Below are positions 21,636 through 39,850 of a stretch of DNA of 39,850 bases, in pieces. The stretch lies in the IMG/VR virus record IMGVR_UViG_3300035498_000265, positions 64,001 to 103,850 of that record; one strand, given 5' to 3'. The notes beneath the pieces were generated by a model. That model saw only the letters and a list, made by a program, of their open reading frames with translations, did not search any database and had not been told where the DNA came from. This stretch comes from a virus. Lineage: Duplodnaviria > Heunggongvirae > Uroviricota > Caudoviricetes > Crassvirales. The stretch's first letter is position 1; each line of letters begins with the position of its first letter. The position numbers and the translations under genes are program-made.

Positions 21636-22637
21636 TTATTTAACTTCTTGAACTGTTAATCCAGAAACAGATTCCAATTTAGTTACTAGAGAAGTCATAA
21701 CAGCAGACTCTGCTACAATAGTTAAGTCCTTCTCAGACTTTTGTGGATTTTCACCAGCTCCTTCATAGTAGTAGTGAATATCTAGTGAATCATATTCCTT
21801 AGATTCATCAACCAGGTAAGTAGTTGGAACTACAACAGGCCAACCTACATTCCTATAAATATCACCTCTTTCACCCATGCAGAAGTACTCAAGGTCTGCG
21901 ATTTTCTTACCATCACCAATTACAGCATATTCTTCTGTATCTACTTTACCAGTAGCCTCATTGATATTACCCCAAATAACTTCATCACCTTCATAGGTAA
22001 CAGTTGTTGGAACTATATCAAAGTATACAGGAACTTGTGCTTTAATACCTCTAGTCCAATCCTGCTCAAGCTCCTCAATGATTACACCAGTAGCTTCATC
22101 AGCAAGGTCTGATTCCTTAGTAAGAGGAGTGACTTCAGTATCACCAATCTTAAATCTTAGAAGAGCAACAGGTTCTCTACTAAAGTTCTTAGCTAGAGAG
22201 ATAGCCAATCTCTTATAGAAAGTAGAAGCAGTCATACCAGATACAGCGTGAACCATACCATATTTGATGTAAGAGTCTTCATCAGACATACCTGCAAATT
22301 GATGGATAATAATTCTTAGGATATAATCTTGTCCAGGAATTAGTTCACCACCATTAACTTCTGAGTTAAGAGTTACTGTGCCTCTTTGAAGACTAGTAGC
22401 TAGCTTACCAGCAGGAGTCTTTTTAATGCAAACTACTTTATTAATATCAATAAGGTCTGACCTAGTTCTGCCACCAGCTCCTTGATACTCAAAATATAGA
22501 TGCTGCTTTTTAGTATCAGCTGAAGGAAGAATAGCACCTACAGTAGTTTCTTTCATTCTTTTAGTTGTAGCATCAGCAGTACCTAGTGCCTTTGCAACAT
22601 AAAGGTGTCTTACTTGATTTGTGGAAAAATTTCCCAT
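21636..22637 (-). CDS. Auxiliary capsid (decoration) protein, 333 aa
   Basis: Intact ORF MGNFSTNQVRHLYVA...IADLEYFCMGERGDIYRNVGWP; no TAG; followed by a terminator, as expected for a high-copy protein. Confidence 0.75.
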   Translation of the reverse strand: MGNFSTNQVRHLYVAKALGTADATTKRMKETTVGAILPSADTKKQHLYFEYQGAGGRTRSDLIDINKVVCIKKTPAGKLATSLQRGTVTLNSEVNGGELIPGQDYILRIIIHQFAGMSDEDSYIKYGMVHAVSGMTASTFYKRLAISLAKNFSREPVALLRFKIGDTEVTPLTKESDLADEATGVIIEELEQDWTRGIKAQVPVYFDIVPTTVTYEGDEVIWGNINEATGKVDTEEYAVIGDGKKIADLEYFCMGERGDIYRNVGWPVVVPTTYLVDESKEYDSLDIHYYYEGAGENPQKSEKDLTIVAESAVMTSLVTKLESVSGLTVQEVK

Positions 22638-25439: not shown

Positions 25440-26942
25440 TTAGCCTTGTAGTATATTGGGGATAAGTGATAATGTTCTAGTTGGGTCAAGAACACAAACA
25501 CCAAATTGAGCCATCTTATGGATTACTGCAGAATCTTCATCATAAGACATATTCATGTTATTGATTTGTCCTGTGAATGGATTCCTTAGACCCCACTCAT
25601 AACCCCTAAGCTCAGGTTGTCCTTTGATTCCACATTTAAAGATATTAGGTTGGTCCATTGTACCAATATCCATAATATCATACCTATATGAGAAGGCAGG
25701 GCCACCATTAGGATGTTGAATCTTATTTCTTACAGGGTCATCGTAGTATGGGTCAACATCAATCTTAACTCTAACACCATTAGGAGCTTTAAACTCTACA
25801 AATTGGAAACCAGCTGATAGAGCATTGCTATGTAGATTAGATTGAGTCTTTTCTACAATACCAAGGTTATCTCCATTAAGAGTAAATTGTGTCCAACCTG
25901 ATACAGTGTTAAGTACAGCTTTATGGAATTGAATAGCTCCTCTTTCACCAGTCTTAATTACAAAGTATCTGTCACCCATTCCAAGCTTAGCAGCAGAAAG
26001 CTCATAAAGAGCATCTTCAATAAGCTTCAAGCTGAATGTGTTGTAATACATTGTATTAGCAACTTCCATTTGCTCAAATAGACCAGCGCCAGTCTTAATC
26101 ACTGAACCTGATTTACCAATGTTAGTGTATTCACCATTAGCATTTCTATTGCTTCTACCAAATGCAAGAGCGTTGTTCTTATACTCAGAGAATTGCTGCT
26201 CAACTTCCCAGTCAACGTGGTGCATCCATCTGTTTACAACAGTCTTCTTGCCCATCTTATCAATAACAGGAATACCACAAGCAATCTTCTTGTTAAGCAT
26301 TGAACCTGTTACCTTATGTTGAATTCTGATAGTTGACCACTCATTTCTCACTTGTACAGGAGAGCTGTATCTAATATCACCAACTTTCCTAGAAAGTTCT
26401 TTTTCTACAAAAGCAGCCTCAATAGAGAATCTTTCACCTGCTAGCAATCTTTCAGCAGGGCAACCAGCAGTGTTACCTCCAGCAAGCTCTACTTTATATA
26501 CAGCGTTAGTGCCTTCCATTCTTGGGTCTCCAAGAATTCTAAATTGATAAAGCTCGTTAAGATTACCTACAATGAACTCACCATCAGCAAACCAATCCTC
26601 AGGAAATACAAGATAGAAAGGAGCAGTGCCTGCACCAACCATGCCACTATCTTTAGTAACAGGAGTCATATTTTCATCCCTAGCCTCTAGTAGAGGAATA
26701 TTTCTCCTTGAACTACCAACTACTTCCCAGTAATATTCACTGTCATCATCAAATTCCTTAGTAGGGAATTGACTTAGGAAAGTATCAAGAGTCTTACCAA
26801 AGTGTGCTGCTAGTAGTTGCACCATAAGGTTAGTAGCTTTCTGAGGAGCAAGTCCAAAGATAGCACCAAGGTGATTTTCCTTTGTTAATCCTTTCCAGCT
26901 AGAAAAGGATTGTGTTTGAAATTTACCTAGCGTTCCAGCCAT
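25440..26942 (-). CDS. Major capsid protein, crAss-like, 500 aa
   Basis: Intact ORF MAGTLGKFQTQSFSSWKGLTKENHLGAIF...YYDDPVRNKIQHPNGG...GLRNPFTG; recognisable crAss-like MCP; no TAG; TAA stop. Confidence 0.9.
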   Translation of the reverse strand: MAGTLGKFQTQSFSSWKGLTKENHLGAIFGLAPQKATNLMVQLLAAHFGKTLDTFLSQFPTKEFDDDSEYYWEVVGSSRRNIPLLEARDENMTPVTKDSGMVGAGTAPFYLVFPEDWFADGEFIVGNLNELYQFRILGDPRMEGTNAVYKVELAGGNTAGCPAERLLAGERFSIEAAFVEKELSRKVGDIRYSSPVQVRNEWSTIRIQHKVTGSMLNKKIACGIPVIDKMGKKTVVNRWMHHVDWEVEQQFSEYKNNALAFGRSNRNANGEYTNIGKSGSVIKTGAGLFEQMEVANTMYYNTFSLKLIEDALYELSAAKLGMGDRYFVIKTGERGAIQFHKAVLNTVSGWTQFTLNGDNLGIVEKTQSNLHSNALSAGFQFVEFKAPNGVRVKIDVDPYYDDPVRNKIQHPNGGPAFSYRYDIMDIGTMDQPNIFKCGIKGQPELRGYEWGLRNPFTGQINNMNMSYDEDSAVIHKMAQFGVCVLDPTRTLSLIPNILQG

Positions 26943-26972: not shown

Positions 26973-28112
26973 TTATATGTCAATAGAGTATTCTTTAAAC
27001 CATGATTCAGGGTCACTAGCTCCATTGGCAAATCTCAGATTACCATCTGAGGTTCTCACAGTGCCATTTAACTTAGATTCAAGTTCCCTCATTCCCTTAT
27101 TAACTTCCTTTCTAACTTTACCTTTAACTAGATTATCTAAATTAGTAAAGCCATCAGTCATAGTAAATAAGAACCCTACATATTTAAGGAAATCAGTACC
27201 ATGTTCTCTCTCATACTTTTGAACAGCGGTCATTGGGTCTCCAGTCTCAGGGTCTTTGAATGTGGGCTTAGCAATGTTGTCATAAATTCTTTGCCTAGTT
27301 TTTTTATCAACTTCTATCTCACCAAATACCTTTTTATCACTTAGGATAGAAGTCTTAAGAGCTTCTGCTTGTTGCTTCCTTTCTTTCCTAGTAGCAGCTT
27401 CTTGTTCCTTAGCCTCATTAAGCAATGAGTCATATTGGTCTTTAAAGAATTCTTTGTTACTAGTTAAAGCTTCTTTAGCATCCTCTAGGTCAGTACCACC
27501 TTTTATAGATTTCTGTACTTCTCTAGAAGCTCTTTCTTTGCTATATCCCCTGTTTACAAAATCTTGATATATTAGATTCTTTCTTAGTGTTTCCCCTTTC
27601 TCAGTTTCATCTTCAATGCTCTCCTCAGTAATACTATCTAGATAAGCGATAGTATCCTCATATCTCTTAACATCTGAAGGCTCTACTCCAGCATTAAGAG
27701 CATCATCAATCCTCTTTTGCTTTTCATCTAGACCTGCTTGAATTTGTTTTTCAATGAGGTCTCTGAAATCTTCTGGGGTTTCTACACTAGAAATAGTATC
27801 ATCATCAAGGTCTGGGAAGATACCTTCCTCTGTCAAGGCTTTGGCAATGGAAGAGTAGAAGTTGGGAGAAGTACTGCCTTTATCAGGGTCAGTATCTTCC
27901 TTATCCTTATTTTCTTCACTACCTACGCTCTCTGGTTCTTCTTCCTCAAATAATGATTCAGGGTCTACCTCAGTAGTTTTATTTTCTTTATTTTCTTTAC
28001 CTTCTTTAGGCTTTTCCTCTTTTTTCTCAGGTTGAGGTTCCTGTGTTTCATCTGCAAATAGGAAGTCTGCTTCCTCTGCAGTAAAGATGTTGTCTAATGA
28101 TAATTCTGCCAT
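26973..28112 (-). CDS. Acidic scaffold-like protein upstream of MCP, 379 aa
   Basis: Very acidic N-terminal linker, helical/coiled-coil core; directly upstream of MCP; no TAG. Confidence 0.7.
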   Translation of the reverse strand: MAELSLDNIFTAEEADFLFADETQEPQPEKKEEKPKEGKENKENKTTEVDPESLFEEEEPESVGSEENKDKEDTDPDKGSTSPNFYSSIAKALTEEGIFPDLDDDTISSVETPEDFRDLIEKQIQAGLDEKQKRIDDALNAGVEPSDVKRYEDTIAYLDSITEESIEDETEKGETLRKNLIYQDFVNRGYSKERASREVQKSIKGGTDLEDAKEALTSNKEFFKDQYDSLLNEAKEQEAATRKERKQQAEALKTSILSDKKVFGEIEVDKKTRQRIYDNIAKPTFKDPETGDPMTAVQKYEREHGTDFLKYVGFLFTMTDGFTNLDNLVKGKVRKEVNKGMRELESKLNGTVRTSDGNLRFANGASDPESWFKEYSIDI

Positions 28113-32934: not shown

Positions 32935-33057
32935 ACCAAGGATGGCTCTTGGTTAGAGTTGAGGAGGCTAGCATTAGCATTAACATTACTGTAACTCATA
33001 CTGAAGTTGCTAACTCCATTGTTACAATAGTTATAGTCACTACTAATGAGCTTATTT
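32935..33057 (-). other. Non-coding TR-like orphan sequence
   Basis: AAC/AAT-rich register (SSDYNYCNNGVSNFSMSYSNVNANASLL), same 10-nt 5' leader AAATAAGCTC as the real TR, 3' hairpin ACCAAG-agccatc-CTTGGT; no ATG-initiated ORF. Confidence 0.45.
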
Positions 33058-33070
33058 AAGTTTAACTCAG

Positions 33071-33469
33071 TTAGTTATTCTATTTGGTTTTTACCTTTTT
33101 ATATATCTCATAAGCTACTAGTACTAGTGATATACCACCTAGATACATCAATAGTTTCTAGTACCATCTAAGCTTATTAACTTCCTATGTTATAGTAGTT
33201 TTAACCTCAATAGGGACTTCTATAGAGTCAGTCTTTACAACGGTGTCTGTCCTATTTAGATATTTATAAATGTACTTATATTTATATTGATAAACAGTAT
33301 CACCTGATATATATCTATCAATACTATCATGTACAAATATACTATCTCTATACAGTTGATTAATATATTCAATTCTTACAGTCTCAACTGGAACCTCTTT
33401 CTCAATAGTCCTAGTTGATGTACATGATACACATATAAGTAGTAATATTGCTATCAATAGTTTTCTCAT
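33071..33469 (-). CDS. Lipoprotein with C-terminal TM helix (spanin candidate), 132 aa (TAG=Gln)
   Basis: Signal peptide II lipobox LLLICVS|C16; read-through of two TAGs adds LLMYLGGISLVLVAYEIY and a basic tail. Confidence 0.7.
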
Positions 33470-33475
33470 ATCTAC

Positions 33476-33961
33476 TTATTTTAGTAACTCTGAATACTCT
33501 TCCCAGTTGACAGCATCCTTAGCTTCCCAACCCTTAGACAGAGTCTCATTAATAAACACTAGAGCTTTAAAGTAAAAATCTTTAAGGTCATCTAGGCTTT
33601 CAAATTTATAATAAACAGGGTTATCAGTAGTACCTAGTTTAAATGTAGGCAATGTTTCACCATTGCTTTGAACAGCTATATCATAAGCTGCTTTATAATT
33701 AAACTGATTCTCCATAGATAACCATACTGGGATTTCTTTCCAAGTAAATCCTGTTAGTATCTCTTTGTCAATCTCTGCATTAAACCAGCTCAATATTACT
33801 TCTTTTATCTCAGCTAGACTTGGCTTATGTTCAAAGTTCTCTGATAAATAAGATGAATTACCTTCCTCATCAGTTTCCTTATTCCAAGTTATCATCCATA
33901 TATCTCTGATATAATTTGTACATTGTACTGGGTCTGCAACTCCATGTATCTTTATTGCCAT
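33476..33961 (-). CDS. Hypothetical protein (DUF4376-like), 161 aa
   Basis: Intact ORF with GFTWKEIPVWLSMENQFNYKAAYD motif; start overlaps the RT stop. Family name recalled, not searched. Confidence 0.6.
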   Translation of the reverse strand: MAIKIHGVADPVQCTNYIRDIWMITWNKETDEEGNSSYLSENFEHKPSLAEIKEVILSWFNAEIDKEILTGFTWKEIPVWLSMENQFNYKAAYDIAVQSNGETLPTFKLGTTDNPVYYKFESLDDLKDFYFKALVFINETLSKGWEAKDAVNWEEYSELLK

Positions 33962-34932
33962 TTTATAAATGTATTAAATAAATTATGCCCATTGCAGTGA
34001 AGACAATAACCTTTAATAGAAGCTATAATCTCCTACCTTCTTCTCTTGCTCTTAAGATAAGATAATTTAACTTGAGCTTTCTTCTTGATTCTTTTTCTAA
34101 CTCTAGAGTAAGCACCATTGAAAGTAACAAAGCCTAGGTAGTCTAGACCTACATTAAGTGGAGATACTCTGTAATTGCTCTTGATTGTCAACTTACTATC
34201 TTTTAGTAAGTCCTTTACTATATTATGAATCTACCATAGATACTCTTTAGTTGGGCCTAATATTACAACATCATCACAATATCTATAGTAGAATTTAATT
34301 CTATATTTACATTTAAGAGGCATATCTAATAACCACCCTAAGAATAAATTACCAAACACCTAAGAAGCTCTTAAACCTATACTGAGACCCTTATCTAACA
34401 TATCAACGAAGTTATCTAGTATAGGTAATAAAGTCTTATCTTTAATATATCTCCTAATACATACCTTCATTAACTCATGGTCAATGTTATGATAGTATTT
34501 ATTAATATCTATCTTGTAGAAGTATTTAGCTTCTTCTGGATGGTTTCTTATGTCTCTCTATATAATAGACTTCAAGTACATTGTGCCTCTGCCTTTAATA
34601 CTTGAAGCTGTTGTGTATATCATTCTCTTTACTAATAAATCATCAAGTATAGTCATTATAGCATTTACTGCTATTCTGTCCCTATAGTTGATGATTTGAA
34701 TTTCCCTCTCTTTAGCACCCTCTTTAATAATCCTAGTATCATAAGTGCCAAGTCTAAAACTACCAGTCTATATAGCCTCAATAGTTTCTTTAATTACTTG
34801 GTCTTTATTGCTCATTATAAAATGAGCTTGCCTAGTCTTCTTTCTCTTAGTACCCCTGAGTACTACTTTAATACTTCTTTCAATGTTTTCAGGAGTACAA
34901 ATCAATTTGATTAAGTCATTATACCTATGCAT
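33952..34932 (-). CDS. DGR reverse transcriptase, 326 aa (five in-frame TAG; absent from ORF track)
   Basis: KEREI...YRDRI, SIKGRG, YFYKIDINKYYHNIDH, GLSIGLRASQ, YYRYCDD (34270-34281), GLDYLGF; adjacent to TR. Confidence 0.92.
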
Positions 34933-34980: not shown

Positions 34981-35148
34981 TCTGGAAATTCTCTTACAGC
35001 TGCCTTGTTCACTATTAGCTACTAGAGGTTTCTGTAGATTTAACTTTTTTAGTTTTCCTATTATCAATGATAATAGCTTTTACTATGGCTCGTACCTCCT
35101 ATACCTATTAAAGTAATAGGTATAGTGTCTAATAGAGAAATTTCCAGA
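34981..35148 (-). ncRNA. Structured spacer between TR and RT (putative DGR RNA 3' domain)
   Basis: Hairpins at 35099-35125 (12 bp, 3-nt loop) and 35058-35076, enclosed by a 14-bp inverted repeat with one bulge (34981-34994 / 35134-35148). Confidence 0.55.
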
Positions 35149-35153
35149 GATTA

Positions 35154-35258
35154 TAACTGAGAGCCGTTGTTAGTGTTAGAATAACTAACTGAGTTATTAG
35201 CATTCAAGTAGAAAACTCTACTGTTCGCATTAGCGTTGTTGTTAGACTGCTTAAGAGC
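35154..35258 (-). repeat. DGR template repeat (TR)
   Basis: 105 bp, ungapped alignment to 35530-35634; 21 mismatches, all where TR has A on the coding strand; AAC/AAT-rich. Confidence 0.95.
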
Positions 35259-35394
35259 TTATTTTTTAAATAATTTCTTTTAAGTAGGTTTCAGCAACAG
35301 TAGCCATTTTCACTGAAAAACATAATGTTCTCCCGTTGTTGAGCTGAGGTACTATACCCAGTACTAAGCCAGATGCCTGACCTAATACTGGGTA

Positions 35395-35426
35395 CAAAGG
35401 TAAGAAAAATTTTTGAATTATGCAAA
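35395..35426 (-). promoter_or_regulatory. Consensus Bacteroidota promoter driving TR and RT
   Basis: Minus strand TTTG-N20-TACCTTTG, a full consensus match, between the target stop codon and TR. Confidence 0.75.
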
Positions 35427-35454: not shown

Positions 35455-38400
35455 TTAATTTTCTCTTATTTCTGTGAGATTCAGGTAGAAATCTATGTCT
35501 GATGTTTCTACTATATTACCCCTGAAAATCAACCGAGAGCCGTAGTTAGTGCTAGAATAACCAACCGAGTTATCAGCATTCAAGCAGAAAACCCCACCGG
35601 ACGCACCAGCGAAGTTGGAAGACCGCCTAAGAGCCCTTGTAGAAGCCCAAGTGCTTCTTAAGGTAGTATCAGAACTTTGATAGTCACAGTAGCCTTTAAC
35701 AGTACCACCACCAGAGGTACTACAACTACAAATATCACAATACTTACCATGGACAACAGCCTGGGGATAATTACCTGATGGGCCTACAAAGTAGACTCTT
35801 CTAGTAGATAAGTCTGGTTGAGTTATTCTCAGCTTACCACAGTTAGCAGAAGTCTCATTAGCCATAAATACTCTATCCATCCACTCTCCGGCATTACCCT
35901 GAATGTTCTCAAGACCTAGGAATACAGGAACTTCTATATTAGTGTAAGAGATTACACCACTTGAAGAAGTTACTGGGATAGAGGCATTAGCCCAAGTTTC
36001 AGCAGTAGCTATACTTGTTGGTATAGTAGTATCAGTCATACCATATTGTCTTGAAGCACCTAACTTTCTACCAGTAGTAGATGAGCCAGCACCTAAAACA
36101 TTTTGAGAGTTCCTTCTACCATACTTAGCAGTAAACAACATAGCTATTAGCTTATCAGCTTCATAGTCTACTAGTTGTAAACCTCTTGAGTAAGCAGCCT
36201 CACTAAGACTGTGCTAGAACCAGTCACCTTTAACATTAATATCAGCTACATCTTTACCTAGAGTTCCTACAGCAGCTGTCTTAGTTCCATTGAAAGAAGT
36301 ATAAACAGTTAATGAGTCATCTGAAGAAAGCTCAGAAGCAGCTATACAAACAGGCTCTGAATAAACCCAATCAGGCTCCATATCAGCAATCCAGTCCTTA
36401 GCATTCTCTGCAGTCATCTCTTCACCACTATTAAACTTACTTCCTTTATGTAGTACAATGTCACAAGGGTCAGCTGTAATAGAACCTGATACATATTTAG
36501 GAACACCTATGTAGAACCACTTAGCTCCTGAGGGAACAGTTACAATAGCAGGCATACCATTATAAGCATATACACTTGATGATACATAGAACTCACCTAC
36601 ATTTTGTACAGTACCTTCAGTATTAGAAATAATCAAGCCATTAGCACCAGTGAATACACAGCAAGTTTGACCTACTGATAGTGGGTATCTAACCTTCTTA
36701 TAACCTTCAACATTTACCCTAACAATATCATAGCTACTATTAGAAGTAGAAGGAATCCTATCATCAATATAGTTAGCAGCATTAGTAAAGCTGATAACCC
36801 TACTTTCTTTATATAAGCCTTCAGCATCAGCATCTAAATCTATGGGAGAGGCTTTTAAGTCAGCTATTGTTAGAACTCTAGTCTCACTAGAAGTACTAGG
36901 CCTAGTTTCTTGTGAACTAAAACAAGTATATTTCCTACTTAGAGATACACTAGTTGGGCTAAGATAGTTAATACCTTTATACCAGAAACCTGGGAATTTA
37001 ACATAAACTTCACCATAACCACTAGATTGTAGACCAGATAGATTGGCTTCTCTTCTAGTTAAGGAAGAGCCATATCCTGTAGAGAAGTATCTACTATCAG
37101 TGTCTTCTAGCTGAATAACGTACATTGTACCACTCTTATCCCTGGCATTTAAATAAGCTTTATCAGTAGCCTTAGGATTAGTTTCAATCTAAACAGATTT
37201 ACCTTTAGTAACTACTTTACCTAGAACTCTATGGACTTTACTTAAGATGTTAGCAATATGACCAGAAGGTACATATCTAGTTGAGTTTCTAGCACCAGTG
37301 TTATTATCAAAGTTAGTGATATTGCCTTTAACTACAGTACCAGTTACATCTGAGAATCCTGATTCATCTGTAATAGATTCATCTGACTCTATGATTGTGT
37401 ACTCAGGTTGCTTAATAGTTAGACTAGTAAACTTGCTACTATACTCTTTAACTATGTCATCATCAGTGTAAGTGGGAAGTTGTAAAGTACCTACTAATTG
37501 AGCACCAGTAGTAACCTAGTTGCCATCCTCATCAAGACCATAGTAGTCTGTGAATTGGTCTAGCCAAGTAATACTATCTTCTCTGTCAATGCCAGTTATT
37601 CTCAAATACTTAGTTGCTGCATTGCTTGATTTAAGCTTCTCAAATAAGCTCTCCCAATTAATATTAGGACAATCATTAACAAGAAGTTCACTTAATTGTG
37701 ACCAATCTTGAGCAGTTAAAGTATCTGAGTCTGAGTTATTATATTGAAGTAAATTTAGATTAGATAGATATAATCCCTTAGGAGTTCCTAAGATTAGGTT
37801 CTCAATAGGGGCACCTGCAGCTAATCTAACTGAACTAATACTAGTACCTGATACATTTAAGTATTTAAGTTTACTAGCTTTATTCAAACCTGAGAGCCCA
37901 GTGAATGTAGAATTAGATAAATCTACATAGTTAATAAGAGGACAGTCAGTAATATAAATATTACCACTACCATTACTTCCCAGATTAGAAGCTACTAACT
38001 TCTATAGGTTAGTTAAACCATTAACATTAATAGTATCCCCAGTAGTAGCTTTCCAAGAACCTTCAGAATCAATATATAATTCCTTAATTCTAGAAGCACC
38101 TAATACATTAGCAGGGTTATTAGCAGCATTACCTGTAATCTCCATACTTACTGTATAGTTGTTAGTGCTGTCAGCTCTCTAGTGGTCTCTTATGCCTGTG
38201 TTAGAAGTTTTCCAAGCAAAGTAGTAAGGAATACTAGATACTATAGTTACTTTATTAGTTAAAGCTGCATCACCTACATAGATGAAGGCATCTTGTTCAT
38301 AGTTACCAGCTTGGTACTTAGAGTCAAGCAAGTTAAATCTGTTCTCTAGAGTATATGTCCTATGAGCTTCCCTAGAACCCTGTGCAGTACTAATAAAGTT

Positions 38401-39849
38401 AGTGCTAATATCTGAAGGATACCCTGTCTCAGTTAAAGGGGTAATATATTTATATTTTTGTGAGTAGTTATACTGCCTTTGACTCCAGTTATTTACATAC
38501 TGACCATTAAAGATTTCTTTGAAGTAATCTGCACTGAATTTACCAGAGCTTCTCATTAACTTACATACACTAGATAAGTTAATAGCAGTCTTAGTATCTA
38601 CTACACTGTCAATAACTCTTTGAGTTGAGAAGTTAGCTCTAATTAAGTACCATAACCAGCTATCATGACCTTGTAGAGCATATTGACCTACACCATAGTC
38701 ATAAGTAGTTCTATCAGTTAGGTAATCATAAGCTAAGTAACAGTCATTCCTCTCACCTAATACTGTATCACCATCATAGTACTAGAACATCCAGTGAGTA
38801 CCATCCATAGTGTACATCATCATATTCTTAGCTCTTTGGTCAACAGCTAATAGATAGTCTGTCCACAGATACCAAGCGCAAACACTACTTAGGTTAAAGT
38901 AATCCTAGACATTGTTAATAAAGTATTCACAAGTCCAGTCAAGAGCTTCAAAGTCCTCAGACTTCATTGAGTTAAGGTCATAAGCTTTCTTACCATTAGC
39001 AGTAGCTACTTCCTTAGCACAAGTACCAATGAAGTTAAATACTCTCTTCAATTGTGTTGGTACATAAGCATATTGCTCAAACCCAGATGTAGTAGCTAAG
39101 CTATCAATACCATAATCAGCAGCTTGGTCAGTTACATCTGCAGGGGCTCTTACTTCTAGTTGATTTGAGAAAGCATCACTAGGATAAGTACTAGCTTCAT
39201 CAATGGCATCCCTTGTAGTAAATTTAATATGGAATAAGTCAAGGTCGGCGTTGTTATCAAGGAATTCAACACATATTGGTTGATAACTACCATCTTTATT
39301 ATAAGTACCATCTGCATCGTACTTATAGGCACCATCAAAACCAAAGACTTCACCTGAGCTAGATTTATCATTGTTAAAGTTATACTGACCCATGTATTGA
39401 AGATTAACATAGTTGCTATCTTCAAGAGTGTCAGTATAATCAGGGTTAACAACAGAGTCTGCAGCAAATACATCAATAGGAAATCCCTCAATAGCTACTC
39501 TAGTCTTAATATCATTAACACTAGTTTTATACTCTCTAGTCTGAGCTGGGTTCCTCAGTGACTCTACATTCTTAGTAAGTTCATTGAATACCATAGCACC
39601 AGCTGTGTTATGAGTCATTGAAGAGTCCACATAGTCAACCTTAAGACAGCAAATAGGAACCTCAACAGCATTCTAGCTCATAGCATACTTGAAGTTGTCT
39701 TTAACTTCACCACCAACTATGAATGAGCCTGCAGCAGGTTTTTCACTCTTAGTCTTTTTATTGAAGTTAATTCTATAGTTTTTCCTAGGTCTCTTAGTAG
39801 AAGTAGTACCCTGGATTCTTATAGCAGCTTCAGTGTGAGTAAAGTTAAA
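35455..39849 (-). CDS. Giant DGR target / putative receptor-binding protein (partial, >1460 aa): CotH-kinase-like, LRR-like and C-terminal C-type lectin domains (TAG=Gln)
   Basis: Five fragments in one frame separated only by TAG (8 in the window); open at the window edge. RIQGTTSTKRPRKNY, GQYNFNNDK, DQRAKNMM...YYDGDT; LxxLxL periodicity at about 37650-38100; GNAGEW and VR at the C-terminus. Confidence 0.8.
35530..35634 (-). repeat. DGR variable repeat (VR)
   Basis: Encodes ALRRSSNFAGASGGVFCLNADNSVGYSSTNYGSRL, a C-type-lectin-fold VR signature, 25 codons from the end of the gene. Confidence 0.95.
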
Positions 39850-39850
39850 T

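Follow-up and report, generated by a model that had tools for sequence, protein, structure and literature searches.

Five in-frame TAG codons in the reverse transcriptase of an active DGR are probably ordinary glutamine codons of a crAss001-like gut phage

A reverse transcriptase (RT) gene that is interrupted five times by TAG, once even at the glutamine of its signature motif, raises the question whether such a gene is switched by its stop codons, is decaying, or is simply written in the code of its phage. We consider it most probable, at roughly 85%, that it is the RT of a complete and currently active diversity-generating retroelement (DGR) in a crAss001-like gut phage which reads TAG as Gln, and that its five TAGs are Gln codons like any others, which arose by drift.

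The window, that is the whole stretch of 39,850 nt analysed here, forms the end of a contig of 103,850 bp. The two ends of this contig overlap by 127 bp and, therefore, the genome is circular. Among its products are the signature virion proteins of crAss-like phages (Crass_capsid, E 5e-216; crAss_AuxCP, the crAss001 auxiliary capsid protein, E 2.5e-121; crAss_MUZ, the muzzle protein, 1074 bits), and the capsid protein is 75–80% identical to the capsid proteins of crAss001 and cr85_1. Judged by these proteins, the phage is a crAss001-like (Steigviridae-type) gut phage with a genome of 104 kb. TAG is distributed in blocks along this genome. It accounts for 300 out of 714 Gln codons (42%) in the minus-strand virion (late) block; the replication block on the plus strand, at about 23–52 kb, is almost TAG-free. 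Such late-gene recoding in gut phages with code 15 (TAG to Gln) was reportedly described by Borges and colleagues in 2022. About 20 tRNAs are encoded in the genome, including an 89 nt tRNA(CTA) whose acceptor stem begins with U1-A72. A phage-encoded release factor and a Gln- or Glu-tRNA synthetase were also looked for and none was found. Within the late block, TAG is entirely absent from the genes for the major capsid protein (window 25440–26942; 0 of 21 Gln codons, p = 1.6e-5), the auxiliary capsid protein (window 21636–22637; 0 of 10, p = 0.007) and a neighbouring protein of 379 aa (window 26973–28112; 0 of 13, p = 0.001). The pattern suggests that the late genes expressed most strongly avoid TAG.

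The RT gene is the only one in the whole genome with a match to the Pfam family RVT_1 (E 4.8e-14). Translating the minus strand from 34932 to 33952 bears out what the initial annotation had read from the letters: there are five TAGs in frame (low coordinates 34768, 34558, 34360, 34231 and 34033), the first of them truncates the standard-code product at codon 55, and the Gln of the GxxxSQ motif is written TCT-TAG. The latter two codons are numbers 190 and 191 within GLSIGLRAS-Q-VFGN, so that the DGR-type motif reads SIGLRASQ if Q191 is translated from TAG; the catalytic motif YCDD follows at codons 218–221. Neither TAA nor TGA occurs in this frame before the terminal TAA, there is no frameshift, and the five TAGs are the only internal stops. 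Read in the standard code, the product of 54 residues would end upstream of all RT motifs. At the G+C content of the window of about 34%, a frame of 327 codons free of TAA and TGA has, as a rough estimate, a chance probability near 1e-8. The best relative with a solved structure is bRT of phage BPP-1 (PDB 8ub7, E 2e-20, residues 3–320), and the nearest named phage RTs are those of the hankyphage DGRs, with about 44% identity; a search of the GenBank phage collection found no RT above 60% identity. All features discussed here are compiled in Table 1.

Table 1. Elements of the DGR and associated features. Positions refer to the window unless given as genome positions.
Feature	Position	Strand	Remarks
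161-aa ORF	33476..33961	-	TAG-free; overlaps RT stop by 10 nt (ATGGCAATAA); phrog_19239, weak DUF4376
DGR reverse transcriptase	33952..34932	-	326 codons; TAG at codons 55, 125, 191, 234, 300
RT-3 RNA (RF03068)	34995..35127	-	Rfam full-length match; conserved GAGCC loop; between TR1 and RT start
TR1 template repeat	35155..35258	-	104-nt core; homology about 2 nt longer on either side
18-bp imperfect hairpin	35355..35394	-	Predicted 5' end of TR1 transcript; inverted repeat I11
Bacteroidetes-type promoter motif TTGCATA-N-TTACCTTTG	35395..35425	-	TTG-N20-TAccTTTG; upstream of TR1
VR1 variable repeat	35531..35634	-	Ends 76 nt upstream of target stop
DGR target, 3' part (1464 codons)	35455..39850	-	Full protein: 2231-aa tail protein, 20 TAGs
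TR2	32961..33053	-	Partner VR2 at genome 23002-23094
VR2	genome 23002-23094 (L008 1703-1795), outside window	+	About 30 kb from TR2 round the circle
Antisense copy of part of TR1 (35177-35196)	33063..33082	+	Perfect over 20 nt; inverted repeat I2
Suppressor tRNA(CTA)	genome c[13242,13330] (L009 543-631)	-	ARAGORN: 21-nt variable region
Promoter-like motif copy	genome 13350-13380 (L009)		20 nt upstream of suppressor tRNA; same type as at TR1-RT

On the minus strand the elements follow each other in the order target 3' end with VR1, promoter motif, leader hairpin, TR1, RT-3 RNA, RT and an ORF of 161 aa. All 20 mismatches between TR1 and VR1 in 104 nt are at adenines of the template (hypergeometric p about 1e-12), and mismatches restricted to A were found in six relatives as well. 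About ten TR1 adenines are G in the VR of all seven lineages (for instance AAG CAG to AGG CGG, AGA to GGG and CAG to CGG); either these sites are under strong selection in the VR or the RT is biased towards A-to-G. Among the always-G sites are the TR codons AAG and AGA, from which TAG or TGA could arise by mutation. In all lineages the homology between TR and VR ends with GGCTCTC(A/G)GTT, and a GC-rich, BPP-1-like IMH could not be defined there. The RT-3 RNA scores 42.8 bits, above the gathering score of 40.5 (E 3.6e-8 to 6e-7), and the promoter motif upstream of TR1 is conserved in one relative (L010). An E. coli-type sigma-70 promoter was considered too and rejected, with 19 sites compared to 31 in shuffled sequences and the best site inside TR1. 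The target gene is split at the point where the contig was linearised: it begins on the minus strand at genome position 2427, with its 5' part beyond the point where the circle closes, and its ORF within the window appears as 1408 aa. The homologues in the relatives measure 2222–2288 aa. Pfam gave no match for the VR region of either DGR target. Avd (PF05635), which is not universal among DGRs, had no match genome-wide, with a positive result in a control genome, and neither the 161-aa nor a 132-aa ORF near the RT is similar to it. The 161-aa ORF is syntenic in every relative; its translation may be coupled to that of the RT, or it may stand in for Avd as an accessory factor. With its templates, RNA, RT and targets at hand, the DGR is by all appearances complete.

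From these motifs, a course of events can be proposed. Host RNA polymerase would start at the Bacteroidetes-type promoter and transcribe the leader hairpin, TR1, the RT-3 RNA and the RT mRNA. The tRNA(CTA) of the phage would then insert Gln at the five TAGs, a decoding taken from the comparison with relatives, and full-length RT would result. By analogy with BPP-1, this enzyme is assumed to copy TR1 and TR2 with adenine-specific errors, and the cDNA to take the place of VR1, at the tip of a tail protein of 2231 aa, and of VR2, within a protein of 205 aa; the outcome is visible in the repeats, and the steps leading to it are assumed. The TAGs themselves would have arisen by drift from CAG or CAA within a module where TAG is neutral. 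Because of them RT is indeed synthesized only where the suppressor tRNA is available, but there is no sign of selection for them as a switch for the timing or dosage of retrohoming.

The initial annotation had gone further and regarded the RT as adapted to the phage code, so that diversification of the receptor would be tied to late infection by the change of code. In such a case the TAGs would be a selected gate, permitting RT synthesis and retrohoming only after the suppressor tRNA has accumulated, in order to confine them to late infection or to limit the dose of RT. The position of TAG55 upstream of all catalytic motifs agrees with this idea, as does the promoter in front of TR1, which the initial annotation had called host-type and which we could indeed recognize as a motif of the Bacteroidetes type, in a genome recoded block by block. 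Furthermore, the avoidance of TAG in the highly expressed capsid genes makes a reduced yield probable wherever it is used, and the Gln of the SQ motif is TAG also in one of the relatives (L004).

Several findings speak against such a gate, however. When the genome was scanned for the Bacteroidetes motif TTG-N19-21-TAnnTTTG, ten intergenic and correctly oriented promoter-like motifs were found, with the consensus TTGcATA-N-cTTAnCTTTG. Copies of it precede the suppressor tRNA, tRNA arrays, the gene for the virion RNA polymerase and late operons including the capsid operon, and none of the ten lies inside the TAG-free replication block. Since tRNA(CTA) and TR1-RT share the same promoter class, there is no reason in the sequence why the RT mRNA should precede the tRNA. 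The RT gene is, moreover, already located within the late virion module, and its TAG share (5 of 10 Gln codons) corresponds to the mean of 42% in this module (p = 0.75). Thus, whether TAG is found at any given Gln, including the signature Gln, is roughly a coin toss.

The relatives lead to the same result. Close relatives of the RT (57–82% identical) were obtained from metagenome assemblies, and six syntenic loci were compared, three of them TAG-recoded (L001, L004, L005) and three in the standard code (L002, L006, L007; some genes of the latter two end in TAG). The positions of TAG turn over completely between close relatives: the RT of L001, 82% identical, has four TAGs and none of them at the five positions occupied here, and the RT of L005 has one only. 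The three standard-code sisters keep the same layout of target, promoter, TR and RT, with mismatches between TR and VR at A only, and their cassettes contain no TAG at all. What stands of the proposed adaptation is that full-length RT needs the decoding of TAG; retrohoming requires the code switch in this trivial sense, and just as trivially the cassette would be expected to fail in a standard-code genome. Neither a dedicated adaptation nor a timing device of its own is supported, given a TAG share equal to the module mean, positions not shared with L001, the promoter type at the suppressor tRNA and the place of the RT in the late module. We therefore regard a selected gate as unlikely. The evidence points to TAGs in the RT which follow the code of the genome through neutral CAR-to-TAG turnover, and not to a control specific for the DGR.

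A related possibility concerns the amount of enzyme. Because the capsid proteins avoid TAG, its decoding may have a cost, and five TAGs could consequently lower the yield of RT; that they might keep the RT scarce in this way is a doubtful proposition, of about the same standing as the gate or slightly better. One may speculate further that the five TAGs act together with the 10-nt overlap with the 161-aa ORF as a translational throttle. The RT would then be scarce and appear after the tRNA, retrohoming would hit individual copies of the replicated genome, and the same RT would also diversify the 205-aa target, which is not a tail protein. We think of this as a tentative idea with rather modest prospects. 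If it were true, the phage would vary something besides its receptor-binding tip.

As to whether the gene is functional, sequences from other samples are informative. Contigs of the same phage were found by looking up the exact RT protein and the 54-aa fragment, which is all that gene callers using code 11 record of this RT. A search with the RT in viral contigs found no same-species contig, nor did exact TR1 patterns in viral and metagenome contigs. The whole RT gene is identical base for base in three contigs from other samples (L013, L014, L017), and its first approximately 95 codons including TAG55 are present in two more (L015, L016). Since the same sequence recurs in contigs from other samples, the TAGs are not assembly errors. 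One of these contigs, L016, with 1221 bp from a different JGI sample, corresponds to window positions 35870 to 34650 and differs from them by 20 substitutions only, which all fall within 73 nt of VR1, 18 of them where the TR has adenine; no change is seen in the RT-3 RNA, in TR1 and its promoter, or in RT codons 1–94 including TAG55. From the zero differences outside VR1 we infer that all five TAGs are older than the divergence of VR1, with L016 spanning codons 1–94 of the RT. The second pair behaves in a similar way: between contig L021 and the genome there are 4 differences in 2990 nt, and each of these falls on a TR2-adenine position of VR2. Furthermore, the assemblies L019, L021 and L022 break inside target gene 2 (at genome positions of about 22628, 23028 and 23009, two of them within VR2), breaks of the kind that a heterogeneous VR2 in these samples would bring about. 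Contig pairs of standard-code relatives with identical RTs (L002/L003, L010/L012) have identical VRs too and are uninformative on activity.

There is one RT in the genome and the VRs differ between samples; therefore the gene interrupted by TAGs must have made active enzyme very recently. Evidently, so far as such sequence comparisons can tell, the DGR is currently active and its RT functional in nature. The dN/dS of the RT compared to its relatives, including the recoded L001, is 0.04–0.16 with dS saturated, by which measure the gene is under purifying selection. A decaying pseudogene with true nonsense mutations, in which the TR/VR pattern records past activity, could be suspected from the standard code, as it cuts the gene into six pieces and leaves the callers with the fragment of 54 aa. 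Yet every interruption is a TAG and none a TAA, a TGA or a frameshift, the TAGs align with Gln, and both VR1 and VR2 differ at TR adenines between samples while their flanks are identical. Together with the dN/dS values this makes the non-functional relic, which the initial annotation had named as a possible counter-argument, very improbable.

The translation of TAG itself can be read from orthologous positions. In fourteen orthologous genes, Q is found opposite the TAGs of the window at 71 of 118 residues in the standard-code relatives L002, L006 and L007, compared to a background of 3.8%; the next most frequent residues are E and then K. For the RT, an alignment with the RTs of standard-code DGRs had been recommended in the initial annotation, and it places the Gln codons CAA or CAG of the standard-code relatives opposite TAG125, TAG191 and TAG300. 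Each of these three is also opposite Gln in the alignment to the Bordetella phage bRT (8ub7), where Q191 meets the SQ motif. The Gln of this motif is invariant in an alignment of 26 sequences, including standard-code RTs of Parabacteroides and Phocaeicola. L004 has independent TAGs at positions 125 and 191 and at the invariant Q79. On the strength of these alignments TAG is decoded as Gln in this phage, and the encoded RT has an unbroken SQ motif. Long extra arms are typical of bacterial Tyr, Ser and Leu tRNAs, and the class II-like variable region of 21 nt drawn by ARAGORN might for this reason suggest that TAG is read as one of these residues, but with Q at 60% of the aligned residues against 8 of 118 for Y, S and L together, with TAG at the invariant SQ Gln both here and in L004, and with an extra arm whose 4-bp stem and CUUUGAA loop mimic the anticodon loop of the Gln UUG tRNA, such a reading is next to inconceivable.

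The element is not restricted to the receptor. Between TR2 and VR2, all 18 mismatches in 93 nt are at adenines of the template, and the positions other than A are shared to 100%. VR2 corresponds to codons 136–166 of the 205-aa protein P0123 (phrog_11581), whose TAG-free gene comes first in the non-recoded block and has the tmRNA and an AAA ATPase as neighbours. Thus, the view of the initial annotation that it is the receptor which becomes diversified is too narrow, as this second pair targets a small protein outside the recoded genes. The P0123 family has 659 database matches, and when 40 of its members are aligned, hypervariability is seen exactly in the VR2 segment, between conserved flanks. 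A model from the single sequence was poor (pLDDT 41); an alignment-based model reached a pLDDT of 76 and, compared to the PDB, gave no match with Foldseek (best E 1.0) or VIA-align (best Z 4.3). TR2 exists in L004 and L007 as well and is partly deleted in L001. Directly upstream of TR2, at the end of the gene for the 132-aa protein, lies the antisense copy of 20 nt from TR1 (Table 1). A shorter antisense copy, ACTAACTGAGTT, is found at the same place in L001, with one mismatch, and in L004. The 20-nt copy could pair with the TR1 RNA. With hundreds of members in crAss-like phages, the family of the second target of about 205 aa is the part most worth further work.

Recoded DGR RTs have been published already (Lou et al.; PMC12386605; bioRxiv 10.1101/2023.08.07.552389). 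Lou et al. (bioRxiv 10.1101/2023.08.07.552389) described three TAG-recoded phages from the human gut, I57_PsAC1, I79_PsAC1 and I123_PsAC1. In these, as here, an RT with multiple TAGs adjoins a recoded tail-protein target with the VR near its 3' end; their VR changes over time, and VR1 in our case differs between samples. What differs is the phage and the sequence of its RT, the comparison at codon level with standard-code sister phages and the second TR/VR pair with its remote, TAG-free target. The Zeta phages are likewise crAss-like, target a tail fibre, have an RT with the GxxxSQ motif and mostly lack Avd, but their genomes measure 155–190 kb compared to 104 kb here, and the capsid protein here is of the Steigviridae type. 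With the DGR of BPP-1 (bRT-Avd, TR and Mtd; 8ub7) the element shares the SQ and YxDD motifs, the A-specific mutagenesis from TR to VR and a receptor-binding protein mutagenised at its C-terminus. The code of BPP-1 is the standard one, whereas this DGR is TAG-recoded, has the order target-TR-RT and an RNA of the RT-3 type instead of the spacer region of BPP-1, and no Avd was found.

Late-gene recoding with code 15 is known from crAss-like and other gut phages (Yutin et al. 2021, PMC7886860; theta-ribozyme paper, PMC10879173), with TAG-free early genes, TAG-rich late genes and an encoded tRNA(CTA), and a regulation of late genes by recoding has been proposed for them. There is no difference in principle from the phage studied here, except that the capsid proteins in its late block are TAG-free. 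Yutin et al. 2021 (PMC7886860) do not mention DGRs. New in detail are the crAss001-like lineage with a recoded DGR, its comparison side by side with sisters in the standard code, and a second, remote target.

Summarizing, this phage provides a natural demonstration that a DGR RT with five TAGs, one of them at the signature Gln, is functional. As gene calling with the standard code hides such RTs, surveys of DGRs in gut viromes will undercount them. Finally, the comparison of recoded and standard-code sister phages counsels caution wherever recoding in a single gene is interpreted as regulation.
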